Positions 33,232 to 56,999 of a stretch of DNA of 64,000 nucleotides are shown here, one piece after another. Location of the stretch: contig CAVVEU010000004.1 of the NCBI GenBank assembly GCA_963747235.1, positions 96,001-160,000 on the forward strand, written 5' to 3'. Made by a program: the position numbers and the translations under genes. The stretch's first letter is position 1, and the number at the start of each line of letters is the position of its first letter. A model generated the notes under the pieces. The model saw only the letters and a list, made by a program, of their open reading frames with translations, had not been told where the DNA came from and did not search any database. The stretch comes from an uncultured Candidatus Rokubacteria bacterium (GTDB lineage Bacteria; Methylomirabilota; Methylomirabilia; Rokubacteriales; CSP1-6).

Positions 33232-33303
33232 CAACAGAGAAGCTATCCGGTGGTAAGACCTACCCGGTAGCTCCGACCCGATAGCCCTCCGCGCGGAACT
33301 GAC

Positions 33304-34669
33304 CTACGCGATCCACACCGCCTTGATATTCACGAACTCGCGGATGCCGTATTCGGAGAGCTCGCGGCCGTAGCCGGAGCGCTTGATGCCGCCGAAGGGC
33401 AGGCGCGGGTCGGACTTCACGATCCCGTTGACGAAGATCGCGCCCGCCTCGATCTGCACGGCGAGGCGCTCGGCGCGGGCGCGATCGGCCGTCCACAGCG
33501 CGGCGCCCAGGCCGTAGGGGGAGTCGTTGGCGAGGCGGATCGCGTCGGTCTCGTCCTTGGCCGCGATCACCGCGGCCACCGGGCCGAAGGTCTCCTCGTC
33601 GAAGGCGGGCATGCCCTTGTCCACCGCGGCCAGCAGCGTCGGCGGGTAGAAGGCGCCCTTGCCCGCGGGCACCTCGGCGCCCAGCATCCGCCGGGCCCCG
33701 CGCTTGATGGACTCGGTGACCTGCTTGTGGAGCTCGTCGCGCAGGTCCACGCGCGCCTGGGGCCCGACCTGCGTGTCGCGGGACGTCGGATCGCCCATGC
33801 GCCGCGCGCCCAGCTCCGACTTGAAGCGCTCGAGGAACCGGTCCACCACCGGCTCCACCACGATGAAGCGCTTGGCCGCGATGCAGCTCTGGCCGCTGTT
33901 GATCAGGCGCGCGTCCGCCGCCGCTCGGGCCGCCGCGTCCACATCGGCGTCGGCCAGCACGATGAAGGGATCGCTCCCGCCCAGCTCGAGCACCGTCTTC
34001 TTCAGCATGCGGCCCGCCTGCTCGGCGACCGCCATGCCCGCGCGCTCGCTGCCGGTGAGCGTGGCCGCGACGATGCGCGGGTCGGCGATGATCTCCTTCA
34101 CGCCCGCCGCGTTCGTGAGCACGGTCTGGAAGAGCCCCTCGGGGAAGCCGGCGCGGCGGAACACCTGCTCGATCTGGAGCGCGCAGCGCGGAACGTTCGA
34201 GGCGTGCTTGAGGATGCCGCCGTTGCCCGCCATGAGGGCCGGCGCCGCGAAACGGAAGACCTGCCAGTAGGGGAAGTTCCACGGCATCACGGCCAGCACC
34301 ACCCCGAGCGGGTCGAAGCGGACATAGCTCCGGGTCGCGTCGGTCTCCCGCGGCTGCTGCGGCCAGGAACGCCTCCGCGTGCTCGGCGTAGTAGTCGCAG
34401 GTGCCCGCGCTCTTCTCCACCTCGGCTTCCGCCTGGGTGATGGGCTTGCCCATCTCCCGGGTCATGGTCATGGCGTATTCCGCCTTGTTCGCGCGGAGCT
34501 CCCTGGCGGCGGCCCGCATCAGCCGGGCCCGATCGGCGAACGGCCGGGTGCGCCATTCGAGGAAGGCGGCGTGCGTCCGCGCCAGGGCCTGCTCGATCTG
34601 GGTCTTCGACATCTCCTCGATCGTCTCGAGGATCTCGCCGGTGGCCGGATTGACGGATTGAACGCTCAT
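33304..34669 (-). CDS. NAD(P)-dependent succinate-semialdehyde dehydrogenase family aldehyde dehydrogenase (frameshift near 34360)
   Basis: SVNPATGE, MPWNFP, TGSE, LELGGSD, NSGQSCIA, EETFGP, PFGGIKRSG. Confidence 0.92.
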
Positions 34670-34754
34670 GACGTCCTCCTGTCTCATCATCGTGCGCCCG
34701 ACAAGGACGCGCGGCAAGCGATGCCCGGGCGTAGACTGCGAGTGGAGGTGGCCG

Positions 34755-36389: not shown

Positions 36390-36417
36390 CGGCACGCGCC
36401 TTGCTGTACCCCGGACC

Positions 36418-37292
36418 GTGAGACCTGTCTGGGGGCTGGTGAAGCGCGCCGCGATCAAGTGGAACCGCGACGACTGCCTGACGCTCGGGGCCGCGCTCGC
36501 CTACTACACGGTCTTCTCGCTCGCCCCCATCCTGGTCATCGCGATCGCGGTGGCCGGCGCGCTGTTCGGCGAGGAGGCGGCCCAGGGCGAGATCGTCGGC
36601 CAGATCCGGACCCTGGTCGGAGAGGAAGGCGCCACCGCGATCCAGTCGCTGATCGAGAGCGCCGGCCGCCAGGACGCCGGCGCGCTCGCCACCTCATCGG
36701 GCTCGCGGTCCTGCTCTTCGGCTCGACCAGCGCGTTCAGCCAGCTCCAGTCGGCGCTGAACACGATCTGGGAGGTGGAGGCCGAGACCCACAGCGGGATC
36801 TGGGACATGGTCCGGGCCCGCTTCCTGTCGTTCACGGCGGTGCTGGGCACCGGCTTCCTGCTGAGCGTCTCGCTGGTGCTGAGCGCCGCGGGCGCCGCCT
36901 TCGGCCGCTACGGCTGGGGCTGGATGCCCGCGATCGGCCGCATGCTCGAGCTGGCCGACTTCCTCGGGTCCATGCTGGTGCACACCCTGCTCTTCGCGAT
37001 GATCTTCAAGCTGCTGCCCGACGCGGCGATCCGGTGGCGCGACGTGTGGGTGGGCGCCGGCGTCACCGCCGGGCTCTTCTTCGTCGGCAAGCTGGCGATC
37101 GGCCTGTACCTCGGCACCAGCGAGGTGGGGGCGGCCTACGGCGCGGCGGGCTGGGTCATCCTCATCCTCGCCTGGGTCTACTACTCGGCCCAGATCGTGC
37201 TCTTCGGCGCCGAGTTCACCCGCGCCTTCGCCACGCGTCAGAAAAGCCGCTCCTCCTCTCCCCCTCTCCCCTCTGGGGAGAGGGCAGGGTGA
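36418..37292 (+). CDS. YihY/virulence factor BrkB family membrane protein (frameshift near 36692)
   Basis: GAALAYYTVFSLAP, LQSALNTIW, YGAAG..WVYYSAQIVLFGAEF. Confidence 0.9.
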
Positions 37293-37296
37293 GGGG
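37262..37296 (-). repeat. REP-like palindromic repeat, copy 2
   Basis: Exact reverse complement of 16504-16538. Confidence 0.85.
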
Positions 37297-37297
37297 T

Positions 37298-38062
37298 CTA
37301 CATCTCCACGATCCCGTCACCGACCTTCTTGAGCCGCTCGAGCACCAGCGGGTCGTGGCCGGGCAGCACCAGGTCCTCCGACGACGCCAGCGAGCGGATC
37401 TTCTCGAAGGCCGAGTACATGCGTGGCAGATCCTGGAGGGTGTTGAACGGGATGCGCTCCTCGAAGTTGCGATAGTAGTGCGAGGCGTCGGAGGCCACCA
37501 CCGCCTGGCCCCGCGCGTGCGCCACCGAGACGATCTGCATGCCCGCGGTGTGGCCGCCCACGTGGTGCACCGCGATGCCGGGCACGATCTCGCGTGAGCC
37601 GTCCACGAACTGCATGCGCTTGTCGTAGTTGAGGCGGATGAGCGCGCACACGTCGTCCACCTCGACCGAGTGGCGGAAGGCGGGGAGGGCCGCGTTGCGG
37701 CCGGTGTAGAACGCCATCTCGGAGTCCTGCACGTAGAAGGTGGCGTTGGGGAAGAGCGCGTAGTTGCCCACGTGGTCGTAGTGGAAGTGGCTCAGGATCA
37801 CGTGCTTGACCGAGGCCGCCTCCACGCCGATCTCGGCCAGGCCCTTGCCCGGGCAGCGCAGGAACTGGCGGCCCCGCCGCGTGCCGACGTCTTCCGTGAA
37901 GCCGAGGTCCACCACCACCGTCTCGGTGCCGTTGGTGAGCGCCCACACGAAGTAGTCCATCGTCATGGGGCCCTTGTGGTAGTCGCCGTAGAACGCCTCC
38001 GAGGTGGTGCAGGTGCGGTGGGCGTAGCGCACGGCGTAGATGCGGTAGGGCGCATTGGGCAT
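37298..38062 (-). CDS. N-acyl-homoserine lactonase family MBL hydrolase
   Basis: SHFHYDHVG, GGHTAG, ASDA, PGHDP; AAGGAG RBS. Confidence 0.87.
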   Translation of the reverse strand: MPNAPYRIYAVRYAHRTCTTSEAFYGDYHKGPMTMDYFVWALTNGTETVVVDLGFTEDVGTRRGRQFLRCPGKGLAEIGVEAASVKHVILSHFHYDHVGNYALFPNATFYVQDSEMAFYTGRNAALPAFRHSVEVDDVCALIRLNYDKRMQFVDGSREIVPGIAVHHVGGHTAGMQIVSVAHARGQAVVASDASHYYRNFEERIPFNTLQDLPRMYSAFEKIRSLASSEDLVLPGHDPLVLERLKKVGDGIVEM

Positions 38063-38162
38063 GGTCAAGTCTCCTTTCCCGTGGCAGGATTCTACGCGTT
38101 TCCCAGTTGACACGGAAGGCCCACTTGAACACGCACGACCGCTCTCACGAGGAGGAGCCCGC

Positions 38163-38495
38163 ATGACCCTAGCCGCCGCGGTATCGACGTCTCGCAACGA
38201 GGTTCGCACGGTCGCTCCCAGGCTCATCGAGCTGACCGAGACCCTGGTCTATCCCGACATCTGGGAGCGCCCCGGTCTTTCCAAGCGCGACCGGAGCCTC
38301 ATCACGGTGGCGGCCCTGATGGCGATGTACCGTCCCGATCAGCTCAAGGGCCACACCGAGCGGGCCCTCGCCAACGGCGTCACCAAGGAGGAGATCGGCG
38401 AGCTCATCACCCATCTGGCGTTCTACGCGGGCTGGCCCAGCGCGATGTCGGCGGCCAAGATCGTGAAACAGGTCTACGAGGAGAACAAGGTATGA
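38163..38495 (+). CDS. Carboxymuconolactone decarboxylase family protein
   Basis: DIWERPGLSKRDRSLITVAAL, HLAFYAGWP. Confidence 0.9.
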   Translation: MTLAAAVSTSRNEVRTVAPRLIELTETLVYPDIWERPGLSKRDRSLITVAALMAMYRPDQLKGHTERALANGVTKEEIGELITHLAFYAGWPSAMSAAKIVKQVYEENKV

Positions 38496-39424
38496 AGGTC
38501 GGGTTCATCGGGCTGGGCACCATGGGCGCCAGCATGGCGTCCAATCTCCAGGCGGGCGGGCACGAGCTCTCGGTGAGCGACGTGCGGCGCGAGGCGGCGG
38601 CGGCGCATCTGAAGGCGGGCGCGACCTGGAAGGACACGCCGCGGCAGGTGGCGGAGGGCGTGGAGGTCGTCTTCACCTCGCTCCCCGGGCCGAAGGAAGT
38701 GGAGCAGGTCGCCCTCGGGCCGGACGGGCTGATCCACGGCATGAAGAAGGGCGCGGCCTACTTCGATCTGAGCACGAACTCACCCGCGCTGATGCGCCGG
38801 CTCTACCCCGCGTTCAAGGAGAAGGGCATCCACGTGCTCGACGCGCCGGTGAGCGGCGGGCCCAAGGGCGCCAAGTCGCGGAAGCTCGCGCTGTGGATCG
38901 GCGGCGACCGCGAGGTCTACGATCGCTTCAAGCCGGTGCTGGACGCCATCGGGGATCAGCCCTACTACGTGGGGCCGATCGGGGCGGGCTCGGTGGCCAA
39001 GCTGGTGCACAACTGCGCGGGGTACGCGGTGCAGACCGCGCTGGCCGAGGTCTTCACGATGGGGGTGAAGGGCGGGGTGGACGCGCTCACGCTCTGGAAG
39101 GCGGTGCGGCAGGGCGCGGGCGGCCGGCGGCGCACCTTCGACGGGCTGGCCGACCAGTTCCTGCCCGGCGTCTTCGACCCGCCCGCGTTCAGCCTGCGGC
39201 TGAGCCACAAGGACGTCTCGCTGGCCGTCGCCCTCGGCCGGGAGCTGGGCGTGCCGATGCGGATGGCCAATCTCGCGCTGGAGGAGCTGACCGAGGCGAT
39301 CAACCGCGGCTGGAGCGAGCGGGACTCGCGCGTGGCCATGCTGCTGCAGGAGGAGCGGGCGGGGGTGAAGATCGCGGTGCCCGTCGAGCAGATCCGGGAG
39401 GTGCTGGAGAAAGACGGCCGCTAG
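38492..39424 (+). CDS. 3-hydroxyisobutyrate / 2-hydroxy-3-oxopropionate dehydrogenase family NAD(P) oxidoreductase
   Basis: VGFIGLGTMG, DAPVSGG, AKLVHN, HKD. Confidence 0.9.
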   Translation: MKVGFIGLGTMGASMASNLQAGGHELSVSDVRREAAAAHLKAGATWKDTPRQVAEGVEVVFTSLPGPKEVEQVALGPDGLIHGMKKGAAYFDLSTNSPALMRRLYPAFKEKGIHVLDAPVSGGPKGAKSRKLALWIGGDREVYDRFKPVLDAIGDQPYYVGPIGAGSVAKLVHNCAGYAVQTALAEVFTMGVKGGVDALTLWKAVRQGAGGRRRTFDGLADQFLPGVFDPPAFSLRLSHKDVSLAVALGRELGVPMRMANLALEELTEAINRGWSERDSRVAMLLQEERAGVKIAVPVEQIREVLEKDGR

Positions 39425-40113
39425 GGCTCGCGGAAGAAGAGGGGCTCGATCCTCGAGAGGTCCTTCGAGATCGCCATGGTGAGGAGGTCGGCGAAGCTCT
39501 GAAGGATGATGAGGGCGTTGAGGTCTGCGTCGTTCTGGACCACGCCCTGGATGCGCGCGAGGATGCCGTCGTTCACCTGCTGGATGTTCTCGTAGTGCGT
39601 CTCGAGCTGCTCGAGGCCGAGATCGGGCGCCCCCCCGCGCTTGGCCACGAAGTACTGCTTCAGGAGGTACAGGGAGACCGACCGCACGATGGTCTCCTCC
39701 ACGCTGGAGAACGGCAGGTGGAAGCGGGCCATCGGCTTGAGGAAGTCCATGTAGGGGCATGAGCTGGTGGCCATGACGAGGCCGAAGATGCCGAAGATGC
39801 CCCGCTGCAGCGGGAGCTGCTTGACGTAGGTCCGCTCCTCCGTCGTCACCGTGACCGTGGCCTCGGCCACCGAGGCCTTGTCCTTGAAGAACTCCACGAC
39901 GCTCGACAGGTTGGTGGCCACCGGGCAGTAGGGGTGCTCGGCCGGTTCTAGCGGGCAATGCCCGCATTGGTGGTTCTCGAGCCGCGCCCACGCGGGCGGC
40001 CGCTCGGTCACGGAGGGGTGGTAAGACAGCGTGGCGCGGTCCAGCTCCACGGTGTAGGCCTTGGAGCCCCCGTCCGGAAACGCGAAGTCGTAGACGATCT
40101 TGATGGGGTTCAC
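39421..40113 (-). CDS. DUF6901-like Cys-containing protein
   Basis: WARLENHQCGHCPL..CP, ATSSCP, PMARFHLPF. Confidence 0.75.
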   Translation of the reverse strand: MNPIKIVYDFAFPDGGSKAYTVELDRATLSYHPSVTERPPAWARLENHQCGHCPLEPAEHPYCPVATNLSSVVEFFKDKASVAEATVTVTTEERTYVKQLPLQRGIFGIFGLVMATSSCPYMDFLKPMARFHLPFSSVEETIVRSVSLYLLKQYFVAKRGGAPDLGLEQLETHYENIQQVNDGILARIQGVVQNDADLNALIILQSFADLLTMAISKDLSRIEPLFFREP

Positions 40114-40202
40114 TGGTTACCGCGAGGGTAGCGAGCCGGGGGCGGCTCCGTCAATAAATCAATCTGGTCGGGGCCTTGCGGGCCGCGTGCTATCGTGGGC
40201 CC

Positions 40203-40841
40203 GTGGCGTCCGTTCCCGAGCCTCCGGCCGTCGGCCAGCCGGCGCCGCTCTTCAGCTTGACCTCGGTGCAGGGCGAGCCCGTGGAGCTCGCGGCGTATCG
40301 CGGGCGCCGCAACGTCGTGGTCTGGTTCTCCCGGGGCTTCACCTGCCCGTTCTGTCGCGTCTACATGGACGGCATGCGCGAGGGCTATGAGCTCCTCCAG
40401 GCCGCCGACGCCGAGATCATCCAGGTCGGCCCCAACCTGCTGCAGTCGGCCCGCATCTTCTTCGGCCACAGCCCGACGCCCTACCCCTTCGTCTGCGATC
40501 CCGACAAGCGGCTCTTCGCGGTCTACGGGCTCGGCGACCGGGGCGCCCTCGAGGCGACCCGCTCGGCGGTGGTGAGCTTCTCGTACGCGTTCACCCATGG
40601 GGACACGGGGCCCCAGCTCCGGGGCGCCTGGCTCGACGTCATGAACCGGAACTTCGTCCGCCGGCTGCACCACCACGCCATGACCGCCATGGAGCAGGGG
40701 ATCTTCCTGGTCGACCGGGAGGGCGTCATCCGCCACCGCTCGGTGGTCGGGCCTCTCGACCCGGTCCCCCGGGGCGACAGCCTGGCCGACCTGGTCCGGA
40801 CCCACTGCACCGCCGGCCCCGTAGATCCGCCGCGGCCGTAG
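40203..40841 (+). CDS. Peroxiredoxin-like / AhpC-TSA family redoxin
   Basis: GQPAPLFSL, FTCPFC (CxxC), CDPDKRLFAVYGL, GIFLVDREG. Confidence 0.8.
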   Translation: MASVPEPPAVGQPAPLFSLTSVQGEPVELAAYRGRRNVVVWFSRGFTCPFCRVYMDGMREGYELLQAADAEIIQVGPNLLQSARIFFGHSPTPYPFVCDPDKRLFAVYGLGDRGALEATRSAVVSFSYAFTHGDTGPQLRGAWLDVMNRNFVRRLHHHAMTAMEQGIFLVDREGVIRHRSVVGPLDPVPRGDSLADLVRTHCTAGPVDPPRP

Positions 40842-40878: not shown

Positions 40879-40907
40879 TTGAAATACTACCGGCAGTGTC
40901 GTATGAC
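40879..40907 (+). promoter_or_regulatory. Sigma70-type promoter for the diiron/reductase operon
   Basis: TTGAAA-N17-TATGAC in an AT-richer patch, ending 12 nt before ATG 40920. Confidence 0.5.
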
Positions 40908-40919
40908 TTGAGACGACCG

Positions 40920-41756
40920 ATGCCTGCTTTCGACATCGACTCCTACGTCGGGCGCTCGAGGGCGGTGGACCTTGCGGCCATCGACTGGGCCGCGGTCCCA
41001 CGGTATCCCGTGCCTCCCGAGGCCCTCCGCACCATGCGCTTCATGCAGGACATCGAGAGCCACACCATCATCTACCTGCGCGCCCTGCTGGCCACCCGCG
41101 CCATCGACGACCCGGACGTCGCCACCTTCCTGGCCTGCTGGGTCTACGAGGAGACCTTCCACGGCCTGGCCCTCCAGCGCTTCCTGCAAGCGGCCGGCAC
41201 GCCGGTGGGCGAGCGTCCGCTGCCCCGCGGGCAGGAGCCCTGGCCGAAGCGCATCGAGGCGGCGGCGACCGCGATGGTGTCGAAGGCCTGGCCCAGCTTC
41301 TGCGCGGTGCACATGACCTGGGGCGCGATCAACGAGCTGACCACGCTCACCGGCTATCGGCGCCTGGCCGCGCTCACCGATCACCCGGTGCTCGCGGATC
41401 TGCTCGAGCGGATCGCGCTCGACGAATCGCGGCACTTCTTCTTCTACTACCGCCAGGCCGAGCTCCGCCTGCGGCGCCGCGGGGTCGCGCGGACCGCGCG
41501 CTTCCTGGTGGACCGGTTCTGGGCCCCGGTGGGCAGCGGGGTCCAGCCCGACGCCGAGCTGCGCTTCCTGGCCACCTATCTCTTCGGCGGGCCGGAGGGG
41601 CTGGCCGCGGCGCGAAAGGTGGACGAGACGATCCGGCGCCTGCCCGGTTTCGAGACGGTGCAGCTCCTCGAGTCCTGGATGGACCGGCACGCCGGGGGGC
41701 CCGCCGGCGCTCCCGCGGGGCCACAAGGAGGACCCAATGGCAACGGCAACCACTGA
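40920..41756 (+). CDS. Ferritin-like diiron protein (acyl-ACP desaturase-like)
   Basis: Ligand pattern DIESH / YEETFH / INE / DESRH (E..ExxH..E..ExxH); FWAPVG. Confidence 0.8.
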   Translation: MPAFDIDSYVGRSRAVDLAAIDWAAVPRYPVPPEALRTMRFMQDIESHTIIYLRALLATRAIDDPDVATFLACWVYEETFHGLALQRFLQAAGTPVGERPLPRGQEPWPKRIEAAATAMVSKAWPSFCAVHMTWGAINELTTLTGYRRLAALTDHPVLADLLERIALDESRHFFFYYRQAELRLRRRGVARTARFLVDRFWAPVGSGVQPDAELRFLATYLFGGPEGLAAARKVDETIRRLPGFETVQLLESWMDRHAGGPAGAPAGPQGGPNGNGNH

Positions 41757-43279
41757 GCGCCCAGGTGATCCGCAAGCTGCGGCCGGCCACTACCGCGCCT
41801 ACACCCCGCGCCCCTTCACGCGCGCCGAGCGTGATTCGGTGACGATCCTCTTCGGCGGCCTGCACTGGCGCGTCGAGCGGATCCTGCAGGCGGTGCTGGA
41901 GAGCGGCGGGCACAAGGCGCAGGTCTTGCCCGTGGCCACCAGGGACGACCTCCTCACCGGCCGCGAGGTCGCCGACATCGGCCAGTGCTGCCCGACCAGC
42001 TTCACCACCGGCAACCTGGTCAACTTCCTCAAGAAGGAAGCGAAGGCGACCAGCCCCGAGGACGTCAACAAGAAGTTCGTCTATCTCACGGCCGGCTCGT
42101 GCGGGGCCTGCCGCTTCGGCCAGTATCACCAGAGCTACGAGCTGGCCCTGCGCAACTCCGGGCTCGACGCCTTCCGCATGTTCCTGCTCGCCCAGGACCA
42201 GCTCGACCAGAAGGCGGCGATGGGCGACGGGCTCGATCTCAACCTGCCGGTCACGCTGGGATGCCTCTGGGCGATCTTCTGCACGGACCTGGTGCAGGAC
42301 CTCGAGTACCAGGTGCGGCCGTATGAAGTCGTGCCCGGCCAGACCGAGGCGGTGGTCAAGGAGTCGGTGGAGCTGCTCTACGAGGCGTTCCGGAACCGGC
42401 CCACGCGCGGGCCGTGGCAGTCGGTCCTGCTGGTTCCTGACCACCGGTTACTTCGTGCGCGTCATGAAGCGTATCCGTACGAATTTCGCCGCGATCGAGG
42501 TCGACCGGCTGCGGGTGAAGCCGACCGTGAAGATCACCGGCGAGTTCTACCTCCAGACCGTCGAGGGCGATCCCAACTACAACATCCACCGCTGGCTCGA
42601 GGCGGAAGGCGCCGAGGTCTATCCGGCCGGCATCACGGTGTGGATGGACTACCTGCTGCGCCTGGGCCTGCAGCGCTTCGAGGACTACTCGGGCATCGAG
42701 AAGGGCGCGCGGCTGAAGCTCGGCGCTGGGTCGCGCCGTGCAGGCGATCTACCGGGGCGTGGTCGACCGGCTCCGCCGGGCCATGGGCAACCTGCCCCGG
42801 GCCATCCCGCATCAGCTCGAGCTGCGGCGGCTGGCCGCGCCCTACTTCCACAGCCGGCTGGACGGCGGCGAGGGCGACATGCTGGTCGGCAAGGCGATCT
42901 GGGCGCACCAGAAGAAGAAGGCCCACATGATCTGCGAGCTCTCGCCCTACTCCTGCATGCCCAACACGATGTCCATCGGCGCGATGGCGGGCGTGCTCGG
43001 CAAGTATCCCCGACCTGCTCTACGCCCCGCTCGAGATCAAGGGCGACGCCGAGGTGCACGCGCTCTCGCGCTGCCAGATGATCCTGACCGAGGCCAAGAA
43101 GCGCGCCCAGCGCGAGTTCGACGAGGCGCTCGAGCGGAGCGGCATGACGCTCGAGCAGGTGCGCGCCTACCTGGACGCGCACCCGAAGATGAAGCGCGCG
43201 ACCTACCGCGTGCCCCACATGGGCTGCGCGGGCCAGGCCGCCAACCTGGTCCTGCACGTCGGCGCAGAAGGCGCGGTAA
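41737..43279 (+). CDS. 2-hydroxyacyl-CoA dehydratase-related reductase subunit (COG3581, PlsR-like; about four frameshifts)
   Basis: GQCCPTSFTTG, GSCGACRFGQY, VRPYE, TGEFY, GGEG, PYSCMPN; GGAGG RBS. Confidence 0.8.
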
Positions 43280-45484
43280 TGAAGCTCATCGGGATGGACG
43301 TCGGCTCCACCACGCGTCAAAGCGGTCGCGCGAGTGACCGAGGAGTCGGGCGCGCAGGTGCGTCACTGGCAGGACTACCAGCGGCACAACACGCGCCAGG
43401 CGGAGAAGGTGCTCGAGTTCCTCGGGCGCATGGAGGAGGAGGCGCAGGTCGTGGCGGGCCGCGATCGCGTCTTCTTCACCGGCTCGGGCGCGGGCCTGCT
43501 GGGCCCGCTGGTCGGCGCCAAGATGATCCAGGAAGTGGTGGCGGTCGCCGCGTGCGTCGAGCGGCTGCACCCGGACGTGCGCTTCGTGTCCGAGATCGGC
43601 GGCGAGGACATGAAGACGATCTTCTTCACGCGCGACCGGCACCGGCCGCTCCAAGCAGGTCTACATGCAGTCGGCGTGCAGCGGCGGCACCGGGACGTTC
43701 ATCGAGAAGACCGCGCGCAAGCTCCAGGTGGCGAGCGAGCAGCTCGCGGCCCTGCCGTACGCGGGCATGAGCCTGCACAAGGTCAGCAGCAAGTGCGGCA
43801 TCTTCGCCGAGACCGACGCCAACACGCTCGTGAAGACCGGCGTGCCGGTCGAGGAGATCATCGCGAGCCTCTTCGAGGCGGTGGTGTACCAGAACCTCGC
43901 CACGCTGACCAAGGGCAATACCCCGGCGCCCGAGGTGCTGCTGCTGGGCGGCCCGAACCTCTTCTTCAAGGGGCTGCAGGAGGCCTGGCGGCACCACCTG
44001 GGCAAGCTGTGGGAGCAGCGGAAGCTCGCGCTGCCCGAGGGGCGCGATCCGGCCTCGCTGATCACGGTGCCGGCGGAGGCGCTCTACTACGCCTGTCTCG
44101 GCTGCGTGGAGATCGGCGCGGGCGAGGCCGACGGCGTCGCGGTCTACGAGGGCCGCGACCGGCTGCGCTGGTGGGTGGAGGAGGGCCAGCAGGAGGAGAA
44201 GGCCAAGGCGGGCGGCGCGCGCGCTCGTGGCCTGCGCGGAGGATCTCACCTCGTTCGTGGCCGAGTTCGACCTCAAGCGCTCCGCGTCCGCGCGGGCCGC
44301 GGCGGAGCTGGCGGGCCCGGTGCTGGTCGGCTGCGACTTCGGCAGCACCACCGCCAAGGCGGTCGTGCTCTCGCCCGCGCGCGAGCTGCTCTTCACCTGC
44401 TACGCGCTCTCCAAGGGCAACCCGATCGAGGACGCCCAGTCGCTCTTCCGCCAGGTCCGCGAGGCCGGGCTACACCGAGGTCGGCGGGCTCGCGCTCACC
44501 GGCTACGGCAAGGATCTTCTGAAGGACATCGTCGGCGCCGACGTGGCGGTGGTGGAGACGGTGGCCCACGCCACCGGCACGCTGCACTTCCACCCCGACG
44601 CCGACGTGATCTGCGACGTGGGCGGCACCGACGTCAAGATCATGATCCTGCGCCAGGGCACGGTGGCCGACTTCCGGCTGAACTCGCAGTGCTCCTCCGG
44701 CAACGGCGCGTTCCTGCAGGGCGTGGCCGAGCGCTACGCGATCCCGCTCGAGGCCTACGCCGAGAAGGCCTTCGCGGCCAAGGCGATGCCGCACGCTCGC
44801 GATGGGCTGCGGCGTGTTCCTCCAGTCCGACATCGTCAACCAGCAGCGCAAGGGCTGGGCCGCCGAGGAGATCATGGCCGCGCTGGCCGCGGTGCTGCCG
44901 ATCAACGTCTGGATCTACGCCGGCCAGCTCCAGAACCTCCGCGCGGTGGGGCGCAAGTTCGTGCTGCAGGGCGGCACCCATCGCAACATGGCGGTGGTGA
45001 AGGCCCAGGTGGACTTCATCCGCGGCAAGGTGCCGGAGGCCGACGTGGTGCTGCATCCGTACTCGGGCGAGGCGGGCGCCATCGGCGCCGCGCTGTGCGC
45101 GGCCGACTGGCGCGAAGGGGGCGGCGGGCGCGCGAGCCGCTTCCGCGGCTTCGAGGCCATCGCGGCGCTCGACCTACACGAGCACGACCGCGGCCGACAC
45201 GGTCTGCAAGTGGTGCCCGATCAACTGCACGCGCACCTTCATCGACGTGCAGCTGCCCGGGCGCCACGGGACGGCCGTGGAGCAAGCTGCCCCTGGCCGC
45301 GGGCTGGGAGCGCGTCATCAGCGGCAACTCCTGCCCGAAGGGGCTGGTCGAGGACGTGAACGAGCTGCGCGAGGTGAAGGCGAAGCTGGAGGAGGTCAAG
45401 CGTGACTACCCTAACGTTGCCGAGATGGTTCGGAAGGACGCGTTCCGCCGCTCCCGCGCCGGATCCGAGGCCGTCGCGGGCTAA
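43279..45484 (+). CDS. Tandem BadF/BadG/BcrA/BcrD-type ASKHA ATPase (CoA-substrate-specific enzyme activase, COG1924; several frameshifts)
   Basis: GMDVGSTT, EIGGED, ACSGGTG, SKCGIF; then GCDFGSTT, TGYG, DVGGTD, QCSSGNG, GCGVF; C-terminal CKWCPINC..SGNSCPKG. Confidence 0.88.
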
Positions 45485-46627
45485 GCTCCGGATCGGGATT
45501 CCGCGCGTCCTGAACCTCTGGTCCACCCATCAGTTCTGGGTGGGCTTCTTCGGCGAGCTGGGGGTCGAGGCGCGCCAGCTCGTCTTCTCCTCCGACACCT
45601 CGGAGGAGCAGGGGCGGCAGTTCGGCAAGGGCCGGGGCACGGTGGACTGCTGCTACCCGGTCAAGTGCATCGCCGGCCACTACGGCGAGCTGATCTTCGG
45701 CCAGCGCGAGAAGCTCGACATCCTCTTCTCGCCGATGATCTACAACCTGCCCTCGTTCCTCTCCGGCCACGTGGCGCGCACGCTGACCTGCCCGCGCGTC
45801 ATGGCCGCGCCCGAGAACATCAAGGCCGGCTTCATGAAGGAGCGCGACGTCTTCGCCGAGCAGGGCATCCGCTACGCCGCCCCGTTCGTCTCGCTCGACG
45901 AGCCGCGGCTCGTGCCCAAGCAGCTCTGGGAGGGGCTCGACGGCGTGATCCCCGGCGCTGACCGCCGAGGAGACGGCCGGGGCGGTGGAGGCGGGCTACC
46001 GCGCCCTGGCCGAGTTCAACGCGCGCCTGCGGCGCAAGGGCCGAGAAGTCCTCGAGTGGTGCGCGCGCGAGAACCGCGGGTGCCTGATGGTCCTGGCCCG
46101 GCCCTACCACATGGATCCGGGCATCGGCCACGAGATCGAGGTGGATCTGCAGGCCTACGGCTACCCGGTGCTGTGGGCGCAGTACTTCCCGATCGACGAC
46201 GACCTGATGCAGTGGGCCTTCGGCCCGGACATCCGGGCCGGCCACATCAAGTCGCCCTTCGACATCCGTGACGTGTGGCCGTCTTCTTACAGCAGCAACA
46301 CCAACGAGATCCTGTGGGGCGCCAAGGCGGCCGCGCGGATGCCGTGGGTCGCCTGCGTGGTGCGCCTGGCCAGCTACGAGTGCGGCATGGACCAGCCGAC
46401 CTACACGCCGGTGCAGCAGATCGTGGAGCGCTCCGGCACGCTCTTCTTCTCCTTCCAGGACCTGGACTCGACCAAGCCGGCCGGATCGGTGAAGATCCGG
46501 GTGGAGACCATCGCCCACTACCTCGAGAAGTACGCGGGCGACATCATCGACAAGAAGAAGGCGGCCATGGGCGCCCGGCTGCCCGCTGCTGCCCCGGGCG
46601 GCGGAGGTATCTTTGACAGGGGTTTAG
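45402..46627 (+). CDS. DUF2229 / COG3580 acyl-CoA dehydratase activase-related subunit (frameshifts near 45955 and 46570)
   Basis: RIGIPRVLN, DCCYPVK..GH, TCP, LARPYHMDPGIGH, ECGMD, GSVKIRVET. Confidence 0.82.
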
Positions 46628-46642
46628 CCCCCGGCCTACACT
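46613..46642 (+). promoter_or_regulatory. Sigma70-type promoter for the sensor kinase operon
   Basis: TTGACA-N18-TACACT, ending 11 nt before ATG 46654. Confidence 0.6.
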
Positions 46643-46653
46643 CGCCGGATACG

Positions 46654-49526
<2,873 letters not shown>

Positions 49527-49542
<16 letters not shown>

Positions 49543-51017: not shown

Positions 51018-52016
51018 AGTTGTCGACGGATCGCCGAGGTTCCTGAGTGCGCTGGCGTCCGGGACTCTCGTCGCGCCGCGCGCTGCTTCGGCTCAGTCGC
51101 CGGCCGCGAAGACGGTCAAGGTCGGGCGTGCTCCGGAACGCGCCGGATGGTCCCGTCTTCCGGCAGAACTTCGGCTGGGTTCCGGCGGGCCCTCCACGAG
51201 ATCGGGCTCGTCGAGGGCGAGGGGCTCGTCATCGAGTACCGCGTGCGCGCGGGCACCGCCGAGGAGATCGCCGCGTTGGCCGGAGAGCTGTCACGCCTCC
51301 GGATGAACGCGATCGTGGCGATCGGGCCGGCGTCGGTGCGGGCCGCCGCCGACGCGACGAGAGTCGATACCGATCGTGGCGGTGGATCTGGAATCGGATC
51401 CGATCGCCGAGAAGTTCGTGACCGGTCTCGCCCGGCCCGGGGGGAACGTCACCGGGCTCTTCCTGGATTTCCCGGAGCTGAGCGGGAAGTGGATCGAGCT
51501 CCTGAGGGAGATGGTCCCGCGGCTCTCACGGGTCACGGTGGCCTGGGATCCCTCCACGCCCCACGAACCTGCTCCGGGGCGCCGAGGCGGCGGCCCGGAC
51601 GCTGCGGGTCGATCTCGCGTCGGTGGAGATCCCGGGACCCGAGGCGCTCGCCGCCGCCTTCCGCACGGCCGCCGGCACCCGGGGTGGCGCGATGGTCGTG
51701 CTGCCCTCGCCCGTGGTCAACTCGGCGCGGCGGGAGATCGTCGCGATGGCCGCGAAGCATCGCGTCCCCACGATCATGGCGTTTCCCGAGTTCGCCGAGG
51801 AGGGCGGGCTGATCGCCTACGGTCCCGAACGTCCCCGCCATGTTCCGGCAGGCGGGCGACGTGATGGCGAAGGTTCTGCGCGGAACGTCGCCGGCCGAGA
51901 TCCCGATCGAGCGGCCGGCGCGCTTCGAGCTGATCGTGAATCGAAAGACCGCCGCGAGCCTCGGGCTGACCGTGCCGCGCTCGCTGCTCGCGCGGGCAGA
52001 CACGGTGATCGAGTGA
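51014..52016 (+). CDS. COG2984-type ABC transporter substrate-binding protein (multiple frameshifts)
   Basis: GLARPGGNVTG, KWIELLREMVP, GGLIAYGP, PIERPARFELIVNRKTA, LLARADTVIE. Confidence 0.85.
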
Positions 52017-52992
52017 AGCGCGTCTGCGTGGTCGGCGCGGGCGCCATCGGCACGTTCCTCGGCACGTACCTGGCCCGGACCGGCGCGGACGTCTCGGTCC
52101 TCGCGCGCGGGGAAGACCGCGGCCGCGCTGCGCGCCCACGGCTTCCGGTTCGAGGAAGGCGGCGCGCGACTCACCGCGCCGGTGCGCGTGGCGGAGGAGA
52201 CGGCCGCGCTCGGGCCTCAGGATCTGGTTGTCCTCGCGGTGAAGGGGCCGTCGCTGCCGGGCCTCGCCCCGGCGATCCGGCCGCTGCTGGGCCCGGAGAC
52301 CGTGGTGCTCACCGCGATGAACGGGGTGCCGTGGTGGTTCTTCCACGGCCTCGGCGGGCCCCACGAGGGCGCCGCGGTCCAGGCGGTGGACCCGGACGGC
52401 GGGATCGCGGCCGCGATCCCGGTGCGGCACGTGATCGGCTGCGTGGTGCACGCCACCTGCTCGGTGCGGGAGCCGGGCCTGGTGAAACACGGCTTCGGCC
52501 GCGGCCTGATCGTGGGCGAGCCCACCGGCGGCGCGTCGGGCCGGCTGAGCGCGCTGGCCGATCGGCTGACCGCGGCCGGCTTCGAGACCACGGTCAGCAC
52601 AGCGCATCCAGGCCGACGTCTGGTACAAGCTGTGGGGCAACATGACCATGAACCCGATGTCCGCGCTGACCGGCGCCACCTGCGACCGCCTCCTCGACGA
52701 TCCGCTGCTCGACCGCTTCACGCTCGCGATCATGGCGGAGGCGGCGGCCATCGGCGACCGCATCGGCTGCCCGATTCACCAGAGCGGCGAGGAGCGCAAC
52801 GCGGTGACGCGCAAGCTCGGCGCGTTCAAGACCTCCATGCTGCAGGACGTGGAGGCGGGCAAGCCGCTCGAGATCGACGGGCTCCTCACCGCGGTGAGCG
52901 AGATCGGCCGGCGCGTGAGCGTGCCCACGCCCAGCACCGACGCGCTGCTCGGCCTCACCCGGGTCTTCGCGGCCGGGCGGGGGCTCTACTAG
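52013..52992 (+). CDS. panE: 2-dehydropantoate 2-reductase family (frameshifts near 52112 and 52600)
   Basis: VVGAGAIG, AVK, MNGVPWWF, WYKLWGN, TSMLQD..LEID. Confidence 0.85.
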
Positions 52993-52993
52993 C

Positions 52994-54115
52994 ATGGCGC
53001 CGCCCCGCGCGCCGTTCCGCGCCGACCACGTGGGCAGCCTGCTGCGGCCGCCCGCGCTCAAGGCGCTGCGCCTCGAGCGGGACTCGGGCCGCGCGACCGC
53101 GGCCGAGCTGGCCGCCGCCGAGGACACCGCGATCCTCGGGGCGGTGCGTCTTCAGGAGGAAGCCGGGCTCCTGGGCGTGACGGACGGCGAGATGCGCCGC
53201 AAGTCCTGGCACATGGACTTCCTCACCCGGCTGGGCGGTCTCGTCAGCGAGGGCAAGCAGCTCCCGGTGACCTTCCACGGCCGCGCGGGCGACGTGAACT
53301 TCACGCGGCCCGACCTGCGCATCGCCTCGCGCGTCGGGCGCCCGGCGCCGATCTTCGTGGACGCGTTCCGGTTTCTCCGATCGGCCACCTGCGCGCACCG
53401 CCAAGCTGACGATCCCGTCGCCCTGCATGCTCTACTCCCAGGTGGGGCGCGCCAACATCGACCGGGCGGTGTACCCGGATCTCGACGGCTTCGTGGAGGA
53501 CACCGCCGCGGCCTACCGCGCCGAGATCGCCGATCTCTACGCGGCGGGCTGCCGGTATCTCCAGCTCGACGACGTGAGCCTGGCCTATCTCTGCGACGAG
53601 GACATGCGCGCGCAGGGCCGCGCCCGCGGCGAGGACCCCGACGAGGTGCTGGCGCTGTCGGTGAAGCTGATCCAGGCCACCCTGCGCGACCGGCCGAAGG
53701 ACCTGGTGGTCTGCACGCATCTCTGCCGCGGCAACTTCCGCTCGAGCTGGCGCGCCCAGGGCGGCTACGAGAAGGTGGCGGAGGCCATCTTCAACCAGAT
53801 GCCCTACGACGGCTTCTTCCTCGAGTTCGACGACGCGCGCTCCGGGGACTTCTCGCCCCTGCGCCACGCCCCGAAGCACGTCCGGGTGGTGCTGGGCCTC
53901 GTGACCACCAAGATCGGCCGCGCTCGAGCGGAAGGCCGACCTGAGGCGTCGCCTCGACGAGGCGTCGAAGTACATCGCGCTCGACCAGCTCTGCGTGAGC
54001 CCGCAGTGCGGCTTCTCCTCGACGCTCGAGGGCAACGAGGTCACCGTCGAGCACCAGAAGGCGAAGCTCGCGCTCTGCGTCGAGCTCGCCCACGAGGTCT
54101 GGGGCGGCCTTGTAG
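52994..54115 (+). CDS. Cobalamin-independent methionine synthase II family (MetE C-terminal-like; frameshifts; stop approximate)
   Basis: RADHVGSLLRP, TDGEMRR, HLCRGN, FLEFD, SPQCGF. Confidence 0.88.
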
Positions 54116-54129
54116 TCGCGCCCCACCGA

Positions 54130-54173
54130 CCCTCTCCCCCGGGAGGGGAGAGAGCCGGTCGAGGGTGAGGGGG
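54130..54173 (-). repeat. REP-like palindromic repeat, degenerate copy 3
   Basis: CCCTCTCCCC..GGGGAGAG..AGGGTGAGGGG between convergent genes. Confidence 0.6.
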
Positions 54174-54182
54174 GCGGGCCGG

Positions 54183-55269
54183 TCAGTCGTCGGCGGGCAG
54201 TAGCACGCAGGCCTCGGCCGCGACCGTCACCGAGACCGGGTCGCCCGCGCGGGCGCGCGCCGGGGTGGGGCCGGTGACGCGCAGGACGACGTCGCTGCCC
54301 TCCAGCGCGATCTGGTAGTCCACCGTGTCGCCGAGGTAGCTCGCCCGCAGCACGGTGCCCGCGAGCGCGTTCGTGCCCGGCGCCGGTGTCCGCGCGCTCG
54401 GTCCGCGGGCCGAGCGCGATCAGGTGCGGCCGGATCGACACCACCGCGGGCGTCCCGGGCGTCAGGCCGTCGGCGGCCACGCGCAGCCGCAGGCGGGCCG
54501 CGCGCGACGGTGGCCGCGCCGTCGGCGACCGCGTCGATCAGGTTGGTCTTGCCGATGAACTCGGCGACGAAGCGGGTGCGCGGCCGCTCGAAGAGCTCGT
54601 GCGGCGCGCCGATCTGCTCCACGCGGCCGTTGCGGATCACCGCGGCCCGGTCCGAGATCACCATGGCCTCCGCCTGATCGTGGGTGACGTAGAGCGTGGT
54701 GATGCCGAAGCGCTCGTGCAGGCGGCGGATCTCGAAGCGCATCTCCTCGCGGAGGCTCGCGTCGAGGTTGGAGAGCGGCTCGTCCAATAACAGAATTTCG
54801 GGCTCCACCACCAGGGCGCGCGCCACCGCCACCCGCTGCTGCTGGCCGCCCGACAGCTCGCCGGGATAGCGCGCGCCGTAGCCCGCGAGCTGCACCGCCC
54901 GGAGGATCTCGTCGACCTTCCCGTCTCGCTGGGCGCGCGGCGTGTTCGCCGAAGCGCAGCCCGTAGGCCACGTTCTGCGCCACCGTCATGTGCGGCCAGA
55001 GCGCGTAGCTCTGGAAGATCATCGCCATGCGCCGCCGCTCGGGCGGGATCACGGAGCCCGGTGACGGAGAGCACGCGGTCGCCCACGCGGATCTCCCCCG
55101 CGTCCGGCGCCATGAAGCCCGCCACCAGCCGCAGCGTCGTCGTCTTGCCGCAGCCGGAGGGGCCGAGCAGGGCGACCAGCTCGCCGGGCCGCACCGTGAG
55201 GTCGAGGCCGGCCACCGCCGCGACGTCGCCGTAGCGCTTGGTGAGGCCGGTGATGACGACGCCGGGCAT
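54183..55269 (-). CDS. ABC transporter ATP-binding protein (PotA/FbpC type with TOBE domain; frameshifts)
   Basis: [37 protein letters not shown]. Confidence 0.9.
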
Positions 55270-55273
55270 GGGC

Positions 55274-56999
55274 TCAGCCCGATCCGCTCGAGGACCGCGC
55301 GCCCATGACGTCGCGGCCGAGCAGGGCCTGCATCGCCGCCACGATGGCGAAGGTCATCACGAGCATGAAGATGCCCAGCACCGCGATGGCGCCGAACTGG
55401 CCTTCTTCCTTCAGGTCGAAGATCACCACCGACATGACCTTCGTATTCGGGCTGAACAGGATGATGGAGGCCGACAGCTCCCGGATGACCCCGATGAAGA
55501 CGAAGCACCACGTGGCGATGATGCCGCTCCGGGCGAGCGGCGCGGTGATCTCGCGCAGCACGCGCAGCCGCCCCGCGCCCAGGATGCGGCCCGCTTCCTC
55601 GAGCTCGGGATGGATGCCCCGCATGGTGGCGTCGGCCTGCGAGTAGCCGACCGGCATCTCCTTGGTCAGGTAGGCGATGAAGAGGATCCAGAGCGTGCCG
55701 TAGAGCAGGAAGGGCGGCCGGGTGTAGGCGACGAAGAGCGCCACCGCGAGCACCACGCCCGGGATGACCACCGGCGAGACCGCGAGGAAGCCCAGCACCT
55801 GGTGGCCCAGCACGAGCTTCCGGTTGGTCACGTAGGCGAGCAGGGTGGCGAGTCCCGCGCCCACGCAGGCGGTGAGCACGCCCAGCTCCAGCGTGTTGAC
55901 GATCGCGGACTGGGTCGCGCTGTGGAGAAAAGTGAACGACCAGTTCTCGAGGGTGAAGTTCGCGGCCGTGAGCGGCTGCGCCCAGGCCCGCGCGAACGCG
56001 GTCTTCAGCAGGATGCCGTAGGGCAGGAACACCGCGCAGGCCAGCACGGCCAGGCAGCCCGCGAGCGCGGGCCCGCGCCAGGGCCCGAGCCGGATGATGC
56101 GCCGCTGCCCGCCCTTGCCGCCCACCGCGGCGTAGCCGCGCCGGCCGAGCAGCTTCTTCTGCGCGAGCAGCAGGAGCGCGGTGGCGAGCAGGAGCGGGAT
56201 CGAGAACGCGGCGGCCAGCTCGGCGCGCGGCGGGTACTGGAAGAACGACCACATCTGGGTCGTCACGGTGTGAAAGCCCGCGGGCAGCGCCAGGATGGCC
56301 GGCGAGCCGAAGAGGGCCAGCGCCTGCAGCACGGCCAGGATGAAGCCGCTGAGGATGGCGGGCAGCACCATCGGCAGCGTGATCGTGCGCGCCACCTGCA
56401 GGCGGCCCGCGCCCAGGATGGCCGCCGCGTCCTCGAGATCGGAGGCGATCAGGCCGAGCGTGTTGGCGATCATGATGTACACGTAGGGGAACGTGTAGAT
56501 CGCCACCACGAAGATCAGCCCCGGCATCGAGAAGATGTTGAGCAGCGGCCCCTCCGCGCCGGTGAGGCCGCGGTAGAGCTGGTTGAGATACCCCGCGTTG
56601 GGGCCGGCGAGCATCACCCACGCGAAGGCGCCCAGGAAGGGCGGCGTCACGAACGACGCCATGATCAGGCTCTGGATGATCCGGCGCCCGGGCAGATCGG
56701 TGCGGGCGGAGAGCCAGGCCATCGGCGCGCCGATCGCGAGGGCGACGAGGCCGGACCAGAAGGCGAGCACCACCGTGTTCCAGAGCGCCTTCTGCAGCGG
56801 CGGGTCCCCCAGCACGCGCGCGTAGTGGGCGAGCGTGAAGCCGCCCCGCGGGCCGGTCACGCTGATGTAGGCGAGCCAGCCCATCGGGCAGCAGGATCAG
56901 CATGACCAGGGCGGCCGCCGCGAGCAGCCAGACCGGCGCGGCGCGGTCGAGCCCTTCGAGACGGCCGGGCCTGAGCGATGCCGCCGACGCCTCCGCCAT
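55274..56999 (-). CDS. FbpB/ThiP-type double ABC permease (frameshift near 56885)
   Basis: Two EAA motifs ([20 protein letters not shown]); many TM segments. Confidence 0.9.

Follow-up and report, generated by a model that had tools for sequence, protein, structure and literature searches.

We analysed a stretch of 64,000 nucleotides (nt) from an uncultured Candidatus Rokubacteria bacterium (assembly GCA_963747235.1, contig CAVVEU010000004.1, forward-strand positions 96,001 to 160,000), referred to below as the window, which has a G+C content of 70% and carries, between 40.9 and 46.6 kb, a cluster of four genes. Gene 1 encodes a soluble diiron protein, and genes 2, 3 and 4 (the triad) encode the parts of an ATP-driven iron-sulfur (Fe-S) enzyme of the branch that includes PlsA/PlsR and Ger. 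All four genes lie on the forward strand and overlap by 20, 1 and 83 nt at the gene 1/2, 2/3 and 3/4 junctions (Table 1), in agreement with an earlier annotation made from the letters and their open reading frames (ORFs), here called the sequence-only reading. Gene 1 is intact, and none of genes 2, 3 and 4 is covered by a single open frame in the window. Comparison of the translated fragments from 40.9-46.6 kb with Pfam identified BcrAD_BadFG in three pieces, DUF2229 and, in gene 1, a match to FA_desaturase_2 below the cut-off.

Table 1. Genes and other features in and around the four-gene cluster (window coordinates; aa, amino acids)
Feature	Position	Strand	Remarks
Gene 1, soluble diiron-carboxylate protein, acyl-ACP-desaturase-like	40920..41756	+	intact, 278 aa; 92% identity to intact relative P0001
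Gene 2, PlsR-equivalent (second reductase/dehydratase) subunit	41737..43279	+	512 aa in relatives; 4 insertions; frames 1>2>3>1
Gene 3, tandem BcrAD_BadFG (ASKHA) activase with C-terminal Cys4 motif	43279..45484	+	743 aa in relatives; 7 insertions
Gene 4, DUF2229 subunit (first reductase domain)	45402..46627	+	405 aa in relatives; 2 insertions; stop TAG at 46625-46627 once the insertion at 46572 is discounted
Single-base insertions	42429, 42724, 43007, 43260 (gene 2); 43314, 43632, 44216, 44465, 44791, 45170, 45259 (gene 3); 45956, 46572 (gene 4)	+	from alignment
False 1185-aa ORF	45985-49542	+	DUF2229 end joined to Cache-HAMP-GAF-GAF histidine kinase; artefact of the insertion at 46572
Promoter-like hexamers TTGAAA-N17-TATGAC	40879-40907	+	present in the sequence, 12 nt before the ATG of gene 1
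Terminator-like hairpin	46583-46604	+	consensus scan
Promoter-like site TTGACA-N18-TACACT	46613-46642	+	consensus scan, 10/12 matches; before the histidine kinase gene
AhpC/TSA-type peroxiredoxin-like gene	40176..40841	+	Pfam AhpC-TSA, E = 1.7 × 10−18; just upstream of the cluster
DUF6901 gene	39421-40113	-	E = 2.5 × 10−74; divergent from the AhpC-like gene; position kept in genus-level relatives

When the proteins of intact relatives were compared to the window by tblastn, gene 1 was recovered whole, and genes 2-4 step by +1 frame at every break. Alignment with nine relatives resolved these breaks into 13 single-base insertions present in the window only, nearly all of them at positions that vary among the relatives and at which the window often appears to hold both alleles; in the same alignment, a 14-nt gap near 43365 in gene 3 lies within a stretch of variable length. 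Because the insertions fall where the relatives differ, we take them as assembly errors. One of them, at 46572, hides the stop codon of gene 4 and thereby creates a false ORF that runs on into the histidine kinase downstream. Comparison to intact relatives revealed mid-gene frame steps in other genes of the window as well (33.3-34.7, 36.4-38.5, 51-55.3 and 62.5 kb); the stretches concerned extend over 33300-34700, 36400-38500, 51200-55350 and 62500-63630, with five pieces at 54186-55341. Patchy single-base assembly errors thus reach well beyond the four-gene cluster, and the breaks look, from the alignment, like a consensus artefact of a strain-mixed assembly rather than decay. Decay of the cluster into an array of pseudogenes in this genome, as 13 frame breaks within 4.9 kb might suggest, is hardly credible, given that every break is a +1 insertion of the kind just described, that the fragments of genes 2-4 are still 81-99% identical to intact relatives, that unrelated genes of the window show similar breaks, that the source assembly (5.57 Mb) is in 42 contigs and 88% complete, and that the frames are open in other assemblies of the genus.

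A DNA search for the cluster covered 31 genomes (30 relatives and the window's own). The whole 5.7-kb stretch was found at 87-92% identity in nine same-genus genomes, and matches of at least 1.3 kb occurred in 16 of 18 same-genus genomes and in 4 of the 6 genomes searched from a genus of a different family. At one such locus (L005) the four genes are open, encode 292, 512, 743 and 405 aa, overlap by the same 20, 1 and 83 nt, and have a GGAGG before gene 2. The operon is real and intact in nature, and belongs to a Rokubacterium (Methylomirabilota).

Proteins of an intact relative were used for domain assignment. Gene 3 matches PF01869 (BcrAD_BadFG) in two stretches (E = 1.6 × 10−66) and TIGR00241 (E = 2.9 × 10−60), and gene 4 matches PF09989 (DUF2229; E = 8 × 10−45, 153.6 bits vs. 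a cut-off of 29.4), so that the activase and DUF2229 assignments of the sequence-only reading are borne out by the Pfam models. NCBIfam contains no family for gene 4, and neither Pfam nor NCBIfam has one for gene 2, homologues of which bear the COG-style label 'predicted nucleotide-binding protein' in one source. Two control genomes, those of Thermotoga maritima and Lactococcus lactis, likewise gave DUF2229 matches. Among sequences in the Protein Data Bank (PDB), gene 3 is best matched by the 2-hydroxyglutaryl-CoA dehydratase activator 1hux (E = 6.9 × 10−23). A search for longer relatives identified fused proteins of 1395-1658 aa that contain both PF01869 and PF09989. The region of these proteins that aligns with gene 2 is C-terminal, at residues 1116-1601 of P0396 (1604 aa; 41% identity) and at residues 1016-1380 of P0401 (25% identity), and gene 2 likewise matches the C-terminal region of the fused PlsA-PlsR orthologue of Listeria (24% identity, tblastn E = 6 × 10−24). 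The order in the fused proteins is activase-activase-DUF2229-gene-2-like domain, whereas gene 2 lies first here; the system is therefore split and reordered, as had been proposed: both activation domains are encoded by gene 3 and the first reduction domain by gene 4, and the PlsR-like second reduction domain is encoded by gene 2, which has moved to the front.

The AlphaFold2 model of gene 2 (mean predicted local distance difference test score, pLDDT, 84) matches the folds of HadB/C (hydroxyisocaproyl-CoA dehydratase), BzdO and MbdO (benzoyl-CoA reductases) and the double-cubane protein DCCP almost equally well (Z = 9.9-10.5 over about 285 residues), and the next match after these four has Z = 5.6. 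At the level of sequence there was no grouping with true 2-hydroxyacyl-CoA dehydratases or benzoyl-CoA reductases, a grouping that the sequence-only reading had named as one that would speak against it: neither gene 2 nor gene 4 gave a match at E ≤ 1 to PF06050 (HGD-D) or to any PDB sequence, the HadBC, BzdNO and MbdON chains included.

Conserved cysteines fit the domain assignment. Cys 144, 183, 481 and 520 of gene 3, two in each half, are kept in 53-54 of 54 sequences from all clades of the trees described below, and they match the four cysteines by which activases of known structure bind a single bridging [4Fe-4S] cluster. Further on in gene 3, the motif CxxCxxxC...C at 652-694 is present in 33 of the 34 rows of the clade to which the window's triad belongs (the third clade below) and also in the Listeria clade. 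The two catalytic halves are encoded by genes 4 and 2, with three conserved cysteines each; those of gene 4 are kept in 53-54 of 54 sequences, the Listeria/Clostridia clade included, and those of gene 2 in 55 of 55. An additional cysteine of gene 2 in an SCGAC motif (C122 in P0002; about 42100 in the window) is found in all 36 third-clade members vs. only 2 of the 19 others, and is thus a possible clade-specific cluster ligand. Taken together, these findings firmly identify genes 2-4 as a three-subunit member of the PlsA/PlsR/Ger branch of ATP-driven Fe-S radical enzymes.

Separate trees were built for DUF2229, gene 2 and the activase (54-55 sequences each; quick IQ-TREE runs with LG+G4, SH-aLRT support and midpoint rooting). 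Rows covering less than 60% of the query were dropped, the trees contain no Ger sequence, and the named references were taken from mislabelled chromosomes in a plasmid collection. These references comprise the single 1475-aa ORF of Listeria monocytogenes, the two-gene form of Fusobacterium animalis, and sequences from Collinsella, Haliovirga, Acetoanaerobium, Paraclostridium and Brevibacillus laterosporus; a search with the Listeria protein returned only Listeria and Clostridia relatives, the latter at 53-61% identity, and none from C. perfringens or Enterococcus. Listeria, Clostridia and Fusobacteria form a clade with an SH-aLRT of 98 in the gene 2 and activase trees; support for the equivalent branch of the DUF2229 tree is 92, and it is 99 for an inner branch that excludes Haliovirga. 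A second group consists of long-branched fused metagenomic proteins. The third clade (34-36 rows), which has an SH-aLRT of 100 and a stem of 0.95-1.33 substitutions per site in all three trees, holds the Rokubacteria, every other split triad, Brevibacillus and two fused proteins. The congruence of the three trees, with one and the same fully supported clade, suggests that genes 2-4 evolve as a unit. In none of them does the triad fall inside the Listeria/Clostridia plasmalogen-synthase clade, and the tree-based grouping with PlsA/PlsR that the sequence-only reading had anticipated thus gives way to a separate clade. One of its members comes from a cultured aerobic spore-former, Brevibacillus laterosporus (L176, 4361-9431), and has the usual gene order at 34-40% identity.

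A scan of species-representative genomes with a gene 2 alignment yielded 80 loci that were kept, and 79 plus L043 were examined. Wherever a locus offered enough sequence, the order was gene 2, activase, DUF2229, all on one strand, and in three loci gene 2 is followed by an additional 1.2-1.8 kb. The split order is the norm in the triad loci examined from other phyla, and its fixation across phyla makes it a trait of the clade and no peculiarity of this genome. Triads were identified in Betaproteobacteria, Alphaproteobacteria, Aquificaceae, Binataceae, Dadabacteria, Zixibacteria, Krumholzibacteria and many Acidobacteriota (Terriglobia, Bryobacterales, Vicinamibacteria and Blastocatellia). Most of the third clade is found in aerobic or microaerobic lineages, such as Acidobacteriota, Betaproteobacteria and Aquificaceae.

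The product of gene 1 is a soluble desaturase-like diiron protein, as judged from its predicted metal site and its modelled fold. The six ligands E46, E78, H81, E139, E169 and H172, in the arrangement E, EXXH, E, EXXH, are invariant or at least 90% conserved among 50 diverse homologues. In the AlphaFold2 model (pLDDT 90) the closest fold is that of stearoyl-ACP desaturase (1oq4_A; Z = 18.1, root-mean-square deviation 3.4 over 245 aligned residues), followed by DesA2 (16.4), R2lox (15.2), and then aldehyde-deformylating oxygenase and ribonucleotide reductase R2 (15.0), whereas ferritin-like and Dps-like proteins reach only Z = 10-11. The ferritin-like diiron protein of the sequence-only reading is accordingly confirmed as a diiron protein and lies nearer to the desaturases in fold. 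Foldseek returned only weak rows against the PDB (best E = 3.5 × 10−3), and a profile search of solved sequences matched DesA2 (E = 1.3 × 10−6) and R2lox (5 × 10−4). Since the nearest folds and profiles act on or bind fatty acyl chains, gene 1 looks lipid-related. The scores of gene 1 proteins against PF03405 (FA_desaturase_2), 21.7 and 20.3 bits, lie below the gathering score of 22.7, and NCBIfam has no family for them. In the Atlas clusters nearest to gene 1, PF03405 is assigned to 16-42% of the members, and the family as a whole comprises 1033 representative clusters at E ≤ 10−3. Prediction of a complex between the products of genes 1 and 2 gave a score of 0.00 (mark 0.32), which weighs neither way.

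To what extent gene 1 and the triad occur together was examined from both sides. A scan for the diiron gene with a 14-row alignment gave 80 loci with a relative. Diiron proteins with 62-100% identity to P0001 are encoded at 33 loci, at 31 of which gene 2 directly follows the diiron gene; Rokubacteria or Methylomirabilota is the label of most of these 31, and the remaining few are labelled otherwise. Of the other two loci, L022 has no triad, and at L031 the contig ends at the diiron gene. The other 47 diiron loci (43-69% identity) belong to Binatia, Myxococcota, Burkholderiales, Elusimicrobia, Actinomycetota and Gemmatimonadaceae. In an evenly drawn sample of 121 genomes of the phylum, 32 contain the diiron gene and 40 contain DUF2229; both occur in 29 genomes, the diiron gene alone in 3 and the triad alone in 11. 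Of the 29 genomes with both, 21 carry them on one contig about 4 kb apart and 8 on different contigs. Five of the 11 triad-only genomes come from another family, and one (G095) is flagged as unpublished. A contig 85% identical to the query (L098) has the triad and no diiron gene. Along with four others (L019, L022, L023 and L041) that are likewise 79-91% identical to the cluster, it is filed under metagenome-assembled genomes (MAGs) of Dormiibacterota, Limnocylindria, Verrucomicrobiia or Nitrosocosmicus, which is probably the result of mis-binning. In one betaproteobacterial MAG the diiron gene and the triad are located on different contigs (L062 and L106), and each is about 67-73% identical to its Rokubacterial counterpart, a high value for such distant phyla that hints at gene transfer in soil.

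The surroundings of the cluster add context. The hexamers of the upstream promoter proposed in the sequence-only reading are present, but the site was not called by the consensus scan, whereas the scan did call both the promoter-like site at 46613, proposed to close the unit, and a terminator-like hairpin shortly before it; all these assignments are predictions from consensus matches. The AhpC/TSA-like gene is upstream of the diiron gene in genus-level loci only, and downstream of gene 4 in a more distant locus (L029), and it probably lies outside the four-gene unit. The genes downstream of gene 4 encode a Cache-HAMP-GAF histidine kinase and a response regulator. Outside Rokubacteria, neither the diiron gene nor the triad turned out to have a neighbour that is widely conserved: for the diiron gene the largest neighbour cluster covers 10 of 48 loci, and for the triad the largest real one, a response regulator, covers 15 of 71 loci. 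Subsets of triad loci have neighbours that provide hints of a lipid function: an FA_hydroxylase gene that faces the triad's end in convergent orientation in 5 Terriglobia loci (e.g., L124, 14281-14916); a radical SAM gene just upstream on the same strand in 6 Bryobacterales loci (e.g., L151, 7506-8666), with weak NCBIfam matches that include the tetraether synthase Tes (49 bits vs. a cut-off of 450); and a TetR gene in 4 loci, the best match of which is a fatty-acid regulator below threshold. A transporter of the major facilitator superfamily is encoded near the triad in 7 loci. The host genome contains two haem-copper oxidase genes, in keeping with the aerobic or microaerobic life suggested for it. 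Neither a tetraether synthase above the cut-off nor a PF10520 lipid desaturase was detected in it, and neither result shows absence, because the genome is 88% complete and PF10520 was silent in every control genome.

We tentatively read the operon, reductase triad and diiron enzyme together, as a system for ether-lipid synthesis, and by analogy with known enzymes we give this reading a little less than an even chance. ATP hydrolysis by the activase would drive a low-potential electron into the catalytic pair formed by genes 4 and 2; this pair would act on a membrane glycerolipid in the manner of PlsA/PlsR and Ger, reducing one of its acyl esters to an alkyl or alk-1-enyl ether; and the diiron enzyme, with O2, would introduce a double bond or a hydroxyl group into that same aliphatic chain, for example by converting an alkyl ether to a vinyl ether. 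An ether-lipid function appears plausible from the only characterised relatives of the triad and from the fatty-acyl character of the folds nearest to gene 1. A number of observations weigh against this reading. The diiron gene, which the sequence-only reading had expected to be a conserved neighbour, is one within Rokubacteriales, as the 31 of 33 loci show, but not in other phyla, where the triad was found beside it in 0 of 47 diiron loci (with up to 8 kb of sequence on each side) and the diiron gene was found within 9 kb in 0 of 71 triad loci. A close orthologue of the diiron protein is missing from all five triad genomes of other phyla, three of which gave matches of only 25-31%, and none of five diiron genomes from other phyla contains DUF2229. 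Within the genus, one locus (L022, 8001-8771; G106:C51:5789-6571) has an intact diiron gene between a DUF6901 gene and a kinase, with neither a triad nor an AhpC-like gene, so that the diiron protein can persist alone; conversely, the triad occurs with no diiron gene in six sampled Rokubacteriales genomes, which belong to families f1 and f4. The link between the two parts is tight but confined to Rokubacteriales, and both can stand alone. Furthermore, the stem of 0.95-1.33 substitutions per site that separates the triad from the Listeria/Clostridia clade is long enough that the substrate may differ, and no lipid-synthesis gene adjoins the operon in the window. According to published work, characterised PlsA and Ger function mainly or only without oxygen (PMC13159169, PMC12838417), and Ger and PlsA are at present not distinguishable from sequence (PMC13274423). 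The former point amounts to the main conflict, one over oxygen, because a diiron oxygenase needs O2, and microaerobic life or separation in time could reconcile the two.

Much of the same evidence would also be expected if the enzyme family performed other chemistry here, as an ATP-driven Fe-S reductase or dehydratase with a possibly non-lipid substrate, and the diiron gene were a lineage-specific neighbour with its own job. The separate clade with its long stem, the tie of the gene 2 fold among a hydroxyacyl-CoA dehydratase, benzoyl-CoA reductases and DCCP, the additional cysteine C122, the independence of diiron gene and triad outside Rokubacteriales and sometimes within, and the lack of conserved lipid genes nearby all fit such a scenario. 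We nevertheless consider it doubtful, though far from implausible, given that the only function-proven relatives with the full domain set are lipid ester reductases, that sequence matches to solved dehydratase or reductase subunits are absent, that no CoA ligase or CoA transferase is found among the neighbours examined, and that the overlap between the diiron gene and gene 2 recurs in many genera. It is improbable, in our view, that the diiron protein and the upstream peroxiredoxin-like gene serve to protect an O2-sensitive Fe-S enzyme from O2 or peroxide: the modelled fold of gene 1 is much nearer to desaturases than to ferritin, Dps or rubrerythrin-like proteins, this 280-aa protein has the extra helices of substrate-binding diiron enzymes, the diiron gene is missing from the triads at the 71 loci in other phyla, which are mostly aerobic, and the peroxiredoxin neighbour is kept at the genus level only. 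Such a protective role would account for the AhpC/TSA-like gene adjoining the cluster in close relatives (in another position in L029), for the name 'rubrerythrin' given to a homologue of the diiron protein in one source, and for the combination of an oxygen-respiring host with an enzyme family described as O2-sensitive in PMC12838417.

We know of no proven ether-forming enzyme in the aerobic producers of soil bacterial ether lipids, which include the branched tetraethers used as climate proxies. The triad defines a distinct and widespread clade of PlsA/PlsR-like systems mainly in such aerobic lineages, and in one phylum it is tied to a desaturase-like enzyme that is predicted to depend on O2. 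A broader proposal, which we regard as unlikely, is that the triad clade is the ether-forming enzyme of aerobic and microaerobic soil bacteria, the Acidobacteriota with branched tetraethers included, and that in Rokubacteria it is coupled to a diiron-catalysed step from alkyl to vinyl ether; if true, this would constitute an O2-using route to plasmalogens whose components are not related to the membrane desaturases found in animals and myxobacteria. If, on the other hand, the clade acts on something else, it would represent a branch of the ATP-driven radical enzymes that is still unexplored in aerobes. In either case, the operon offers a concrete, cloneable gene set with which the ether-lipid idea can be tested.

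The general idea is not new, since PlsAR homologues have been proposed as the ether-forming step in the aerobic acidobacterium Solibacter usitatus (Halamka et al. 2022, PMC10087280). The clade structure, the gene order and the coupling to a diiron gene were not found in the literature searched: among the papers listed for DUF2229, none contained a description of the split form, and a search for Rokubacteria and ether lipids returned only unrelated papers. A 2026 preprint (10.64898/2026.06.23.733905) describes 'ger homologs' consisting of activase and DUF2229 in MAGs of Acidobacteriota and others and reports the second reduction domain as absent. Because of the fixed split order, a single fused query can score a triad as partial, and a separate upstream gene could explain this reported absence.

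Comparison to known systems shows both shared and distinct features for each part of the operon. Gene 1 has a six-ligand diiron site and an overall fold similar to those of the soluble acyl-ACP desaturases, DesA2 and R2lox, but its identity to them is only 13-18%, and it forms a family of its own with a Pfam score below the cut-off. With 2-hydroxyacyl-CoA dehydratases, benzoyl-CoA reductases and double-cubane proteins the triad has the fold of gene 2 and the homology of the activase in common; genes 2 and 4, however, have no sequence similarity to these enzymes, the activase is tandem-fused, and CoA-activating genes were not seen nearby. Ger, known from Thermotoga maritima (Tmari_0479) and Desulfatibacillum alkenivorans (SHJ90043), shares the core of activase-activase-DUF2229, to which further short segments are added (PMC13159169), and the function of T. 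maritima Ger, like that of PlsA from Lactococcus cremoris, a close relative of our L. lactis control, has been shown by expression (PMC13159169, PMC12838417). As described in these papers, Ger is a single polypeptide from anaerobes that is active only anaerobically in E. coli, whereas the present system is divided among three genes and has no detectable PF06050 segment in gene 2 or 4. The proposal for Solibacter usitatus invokes the same idea, and Bryobacterales MAGs have the same three-gene order at 38-50% identity, with no diiron partner there. PlsA/PlsR is known as a two-gene plsA-plsR operon in C. perfringens and in single-ORF forms with two activation and two reduction/dehydration domains (PMC12838417), the latter found in Listeria, Enterococcus and Lactococcus; Listeria holds pls orthologues and makes plasmalogens anaerobically (PMC9702350). 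The two activase domains, DUF2229, the PlsR-like domain, the cysteines of the bridging cluster, all other conserved cysteines and the Cys4 motif after the activase are common to PlsA/PlsR and the Rokubacterial triad. The latter differs in its three genes with the PlsR-like one first, its 24-30% identity to the Listeria protein and its position in a separate clade, as well as in the additional cysteine of gene 2, the mostly aerobic host lineages and the diiron partner gene.

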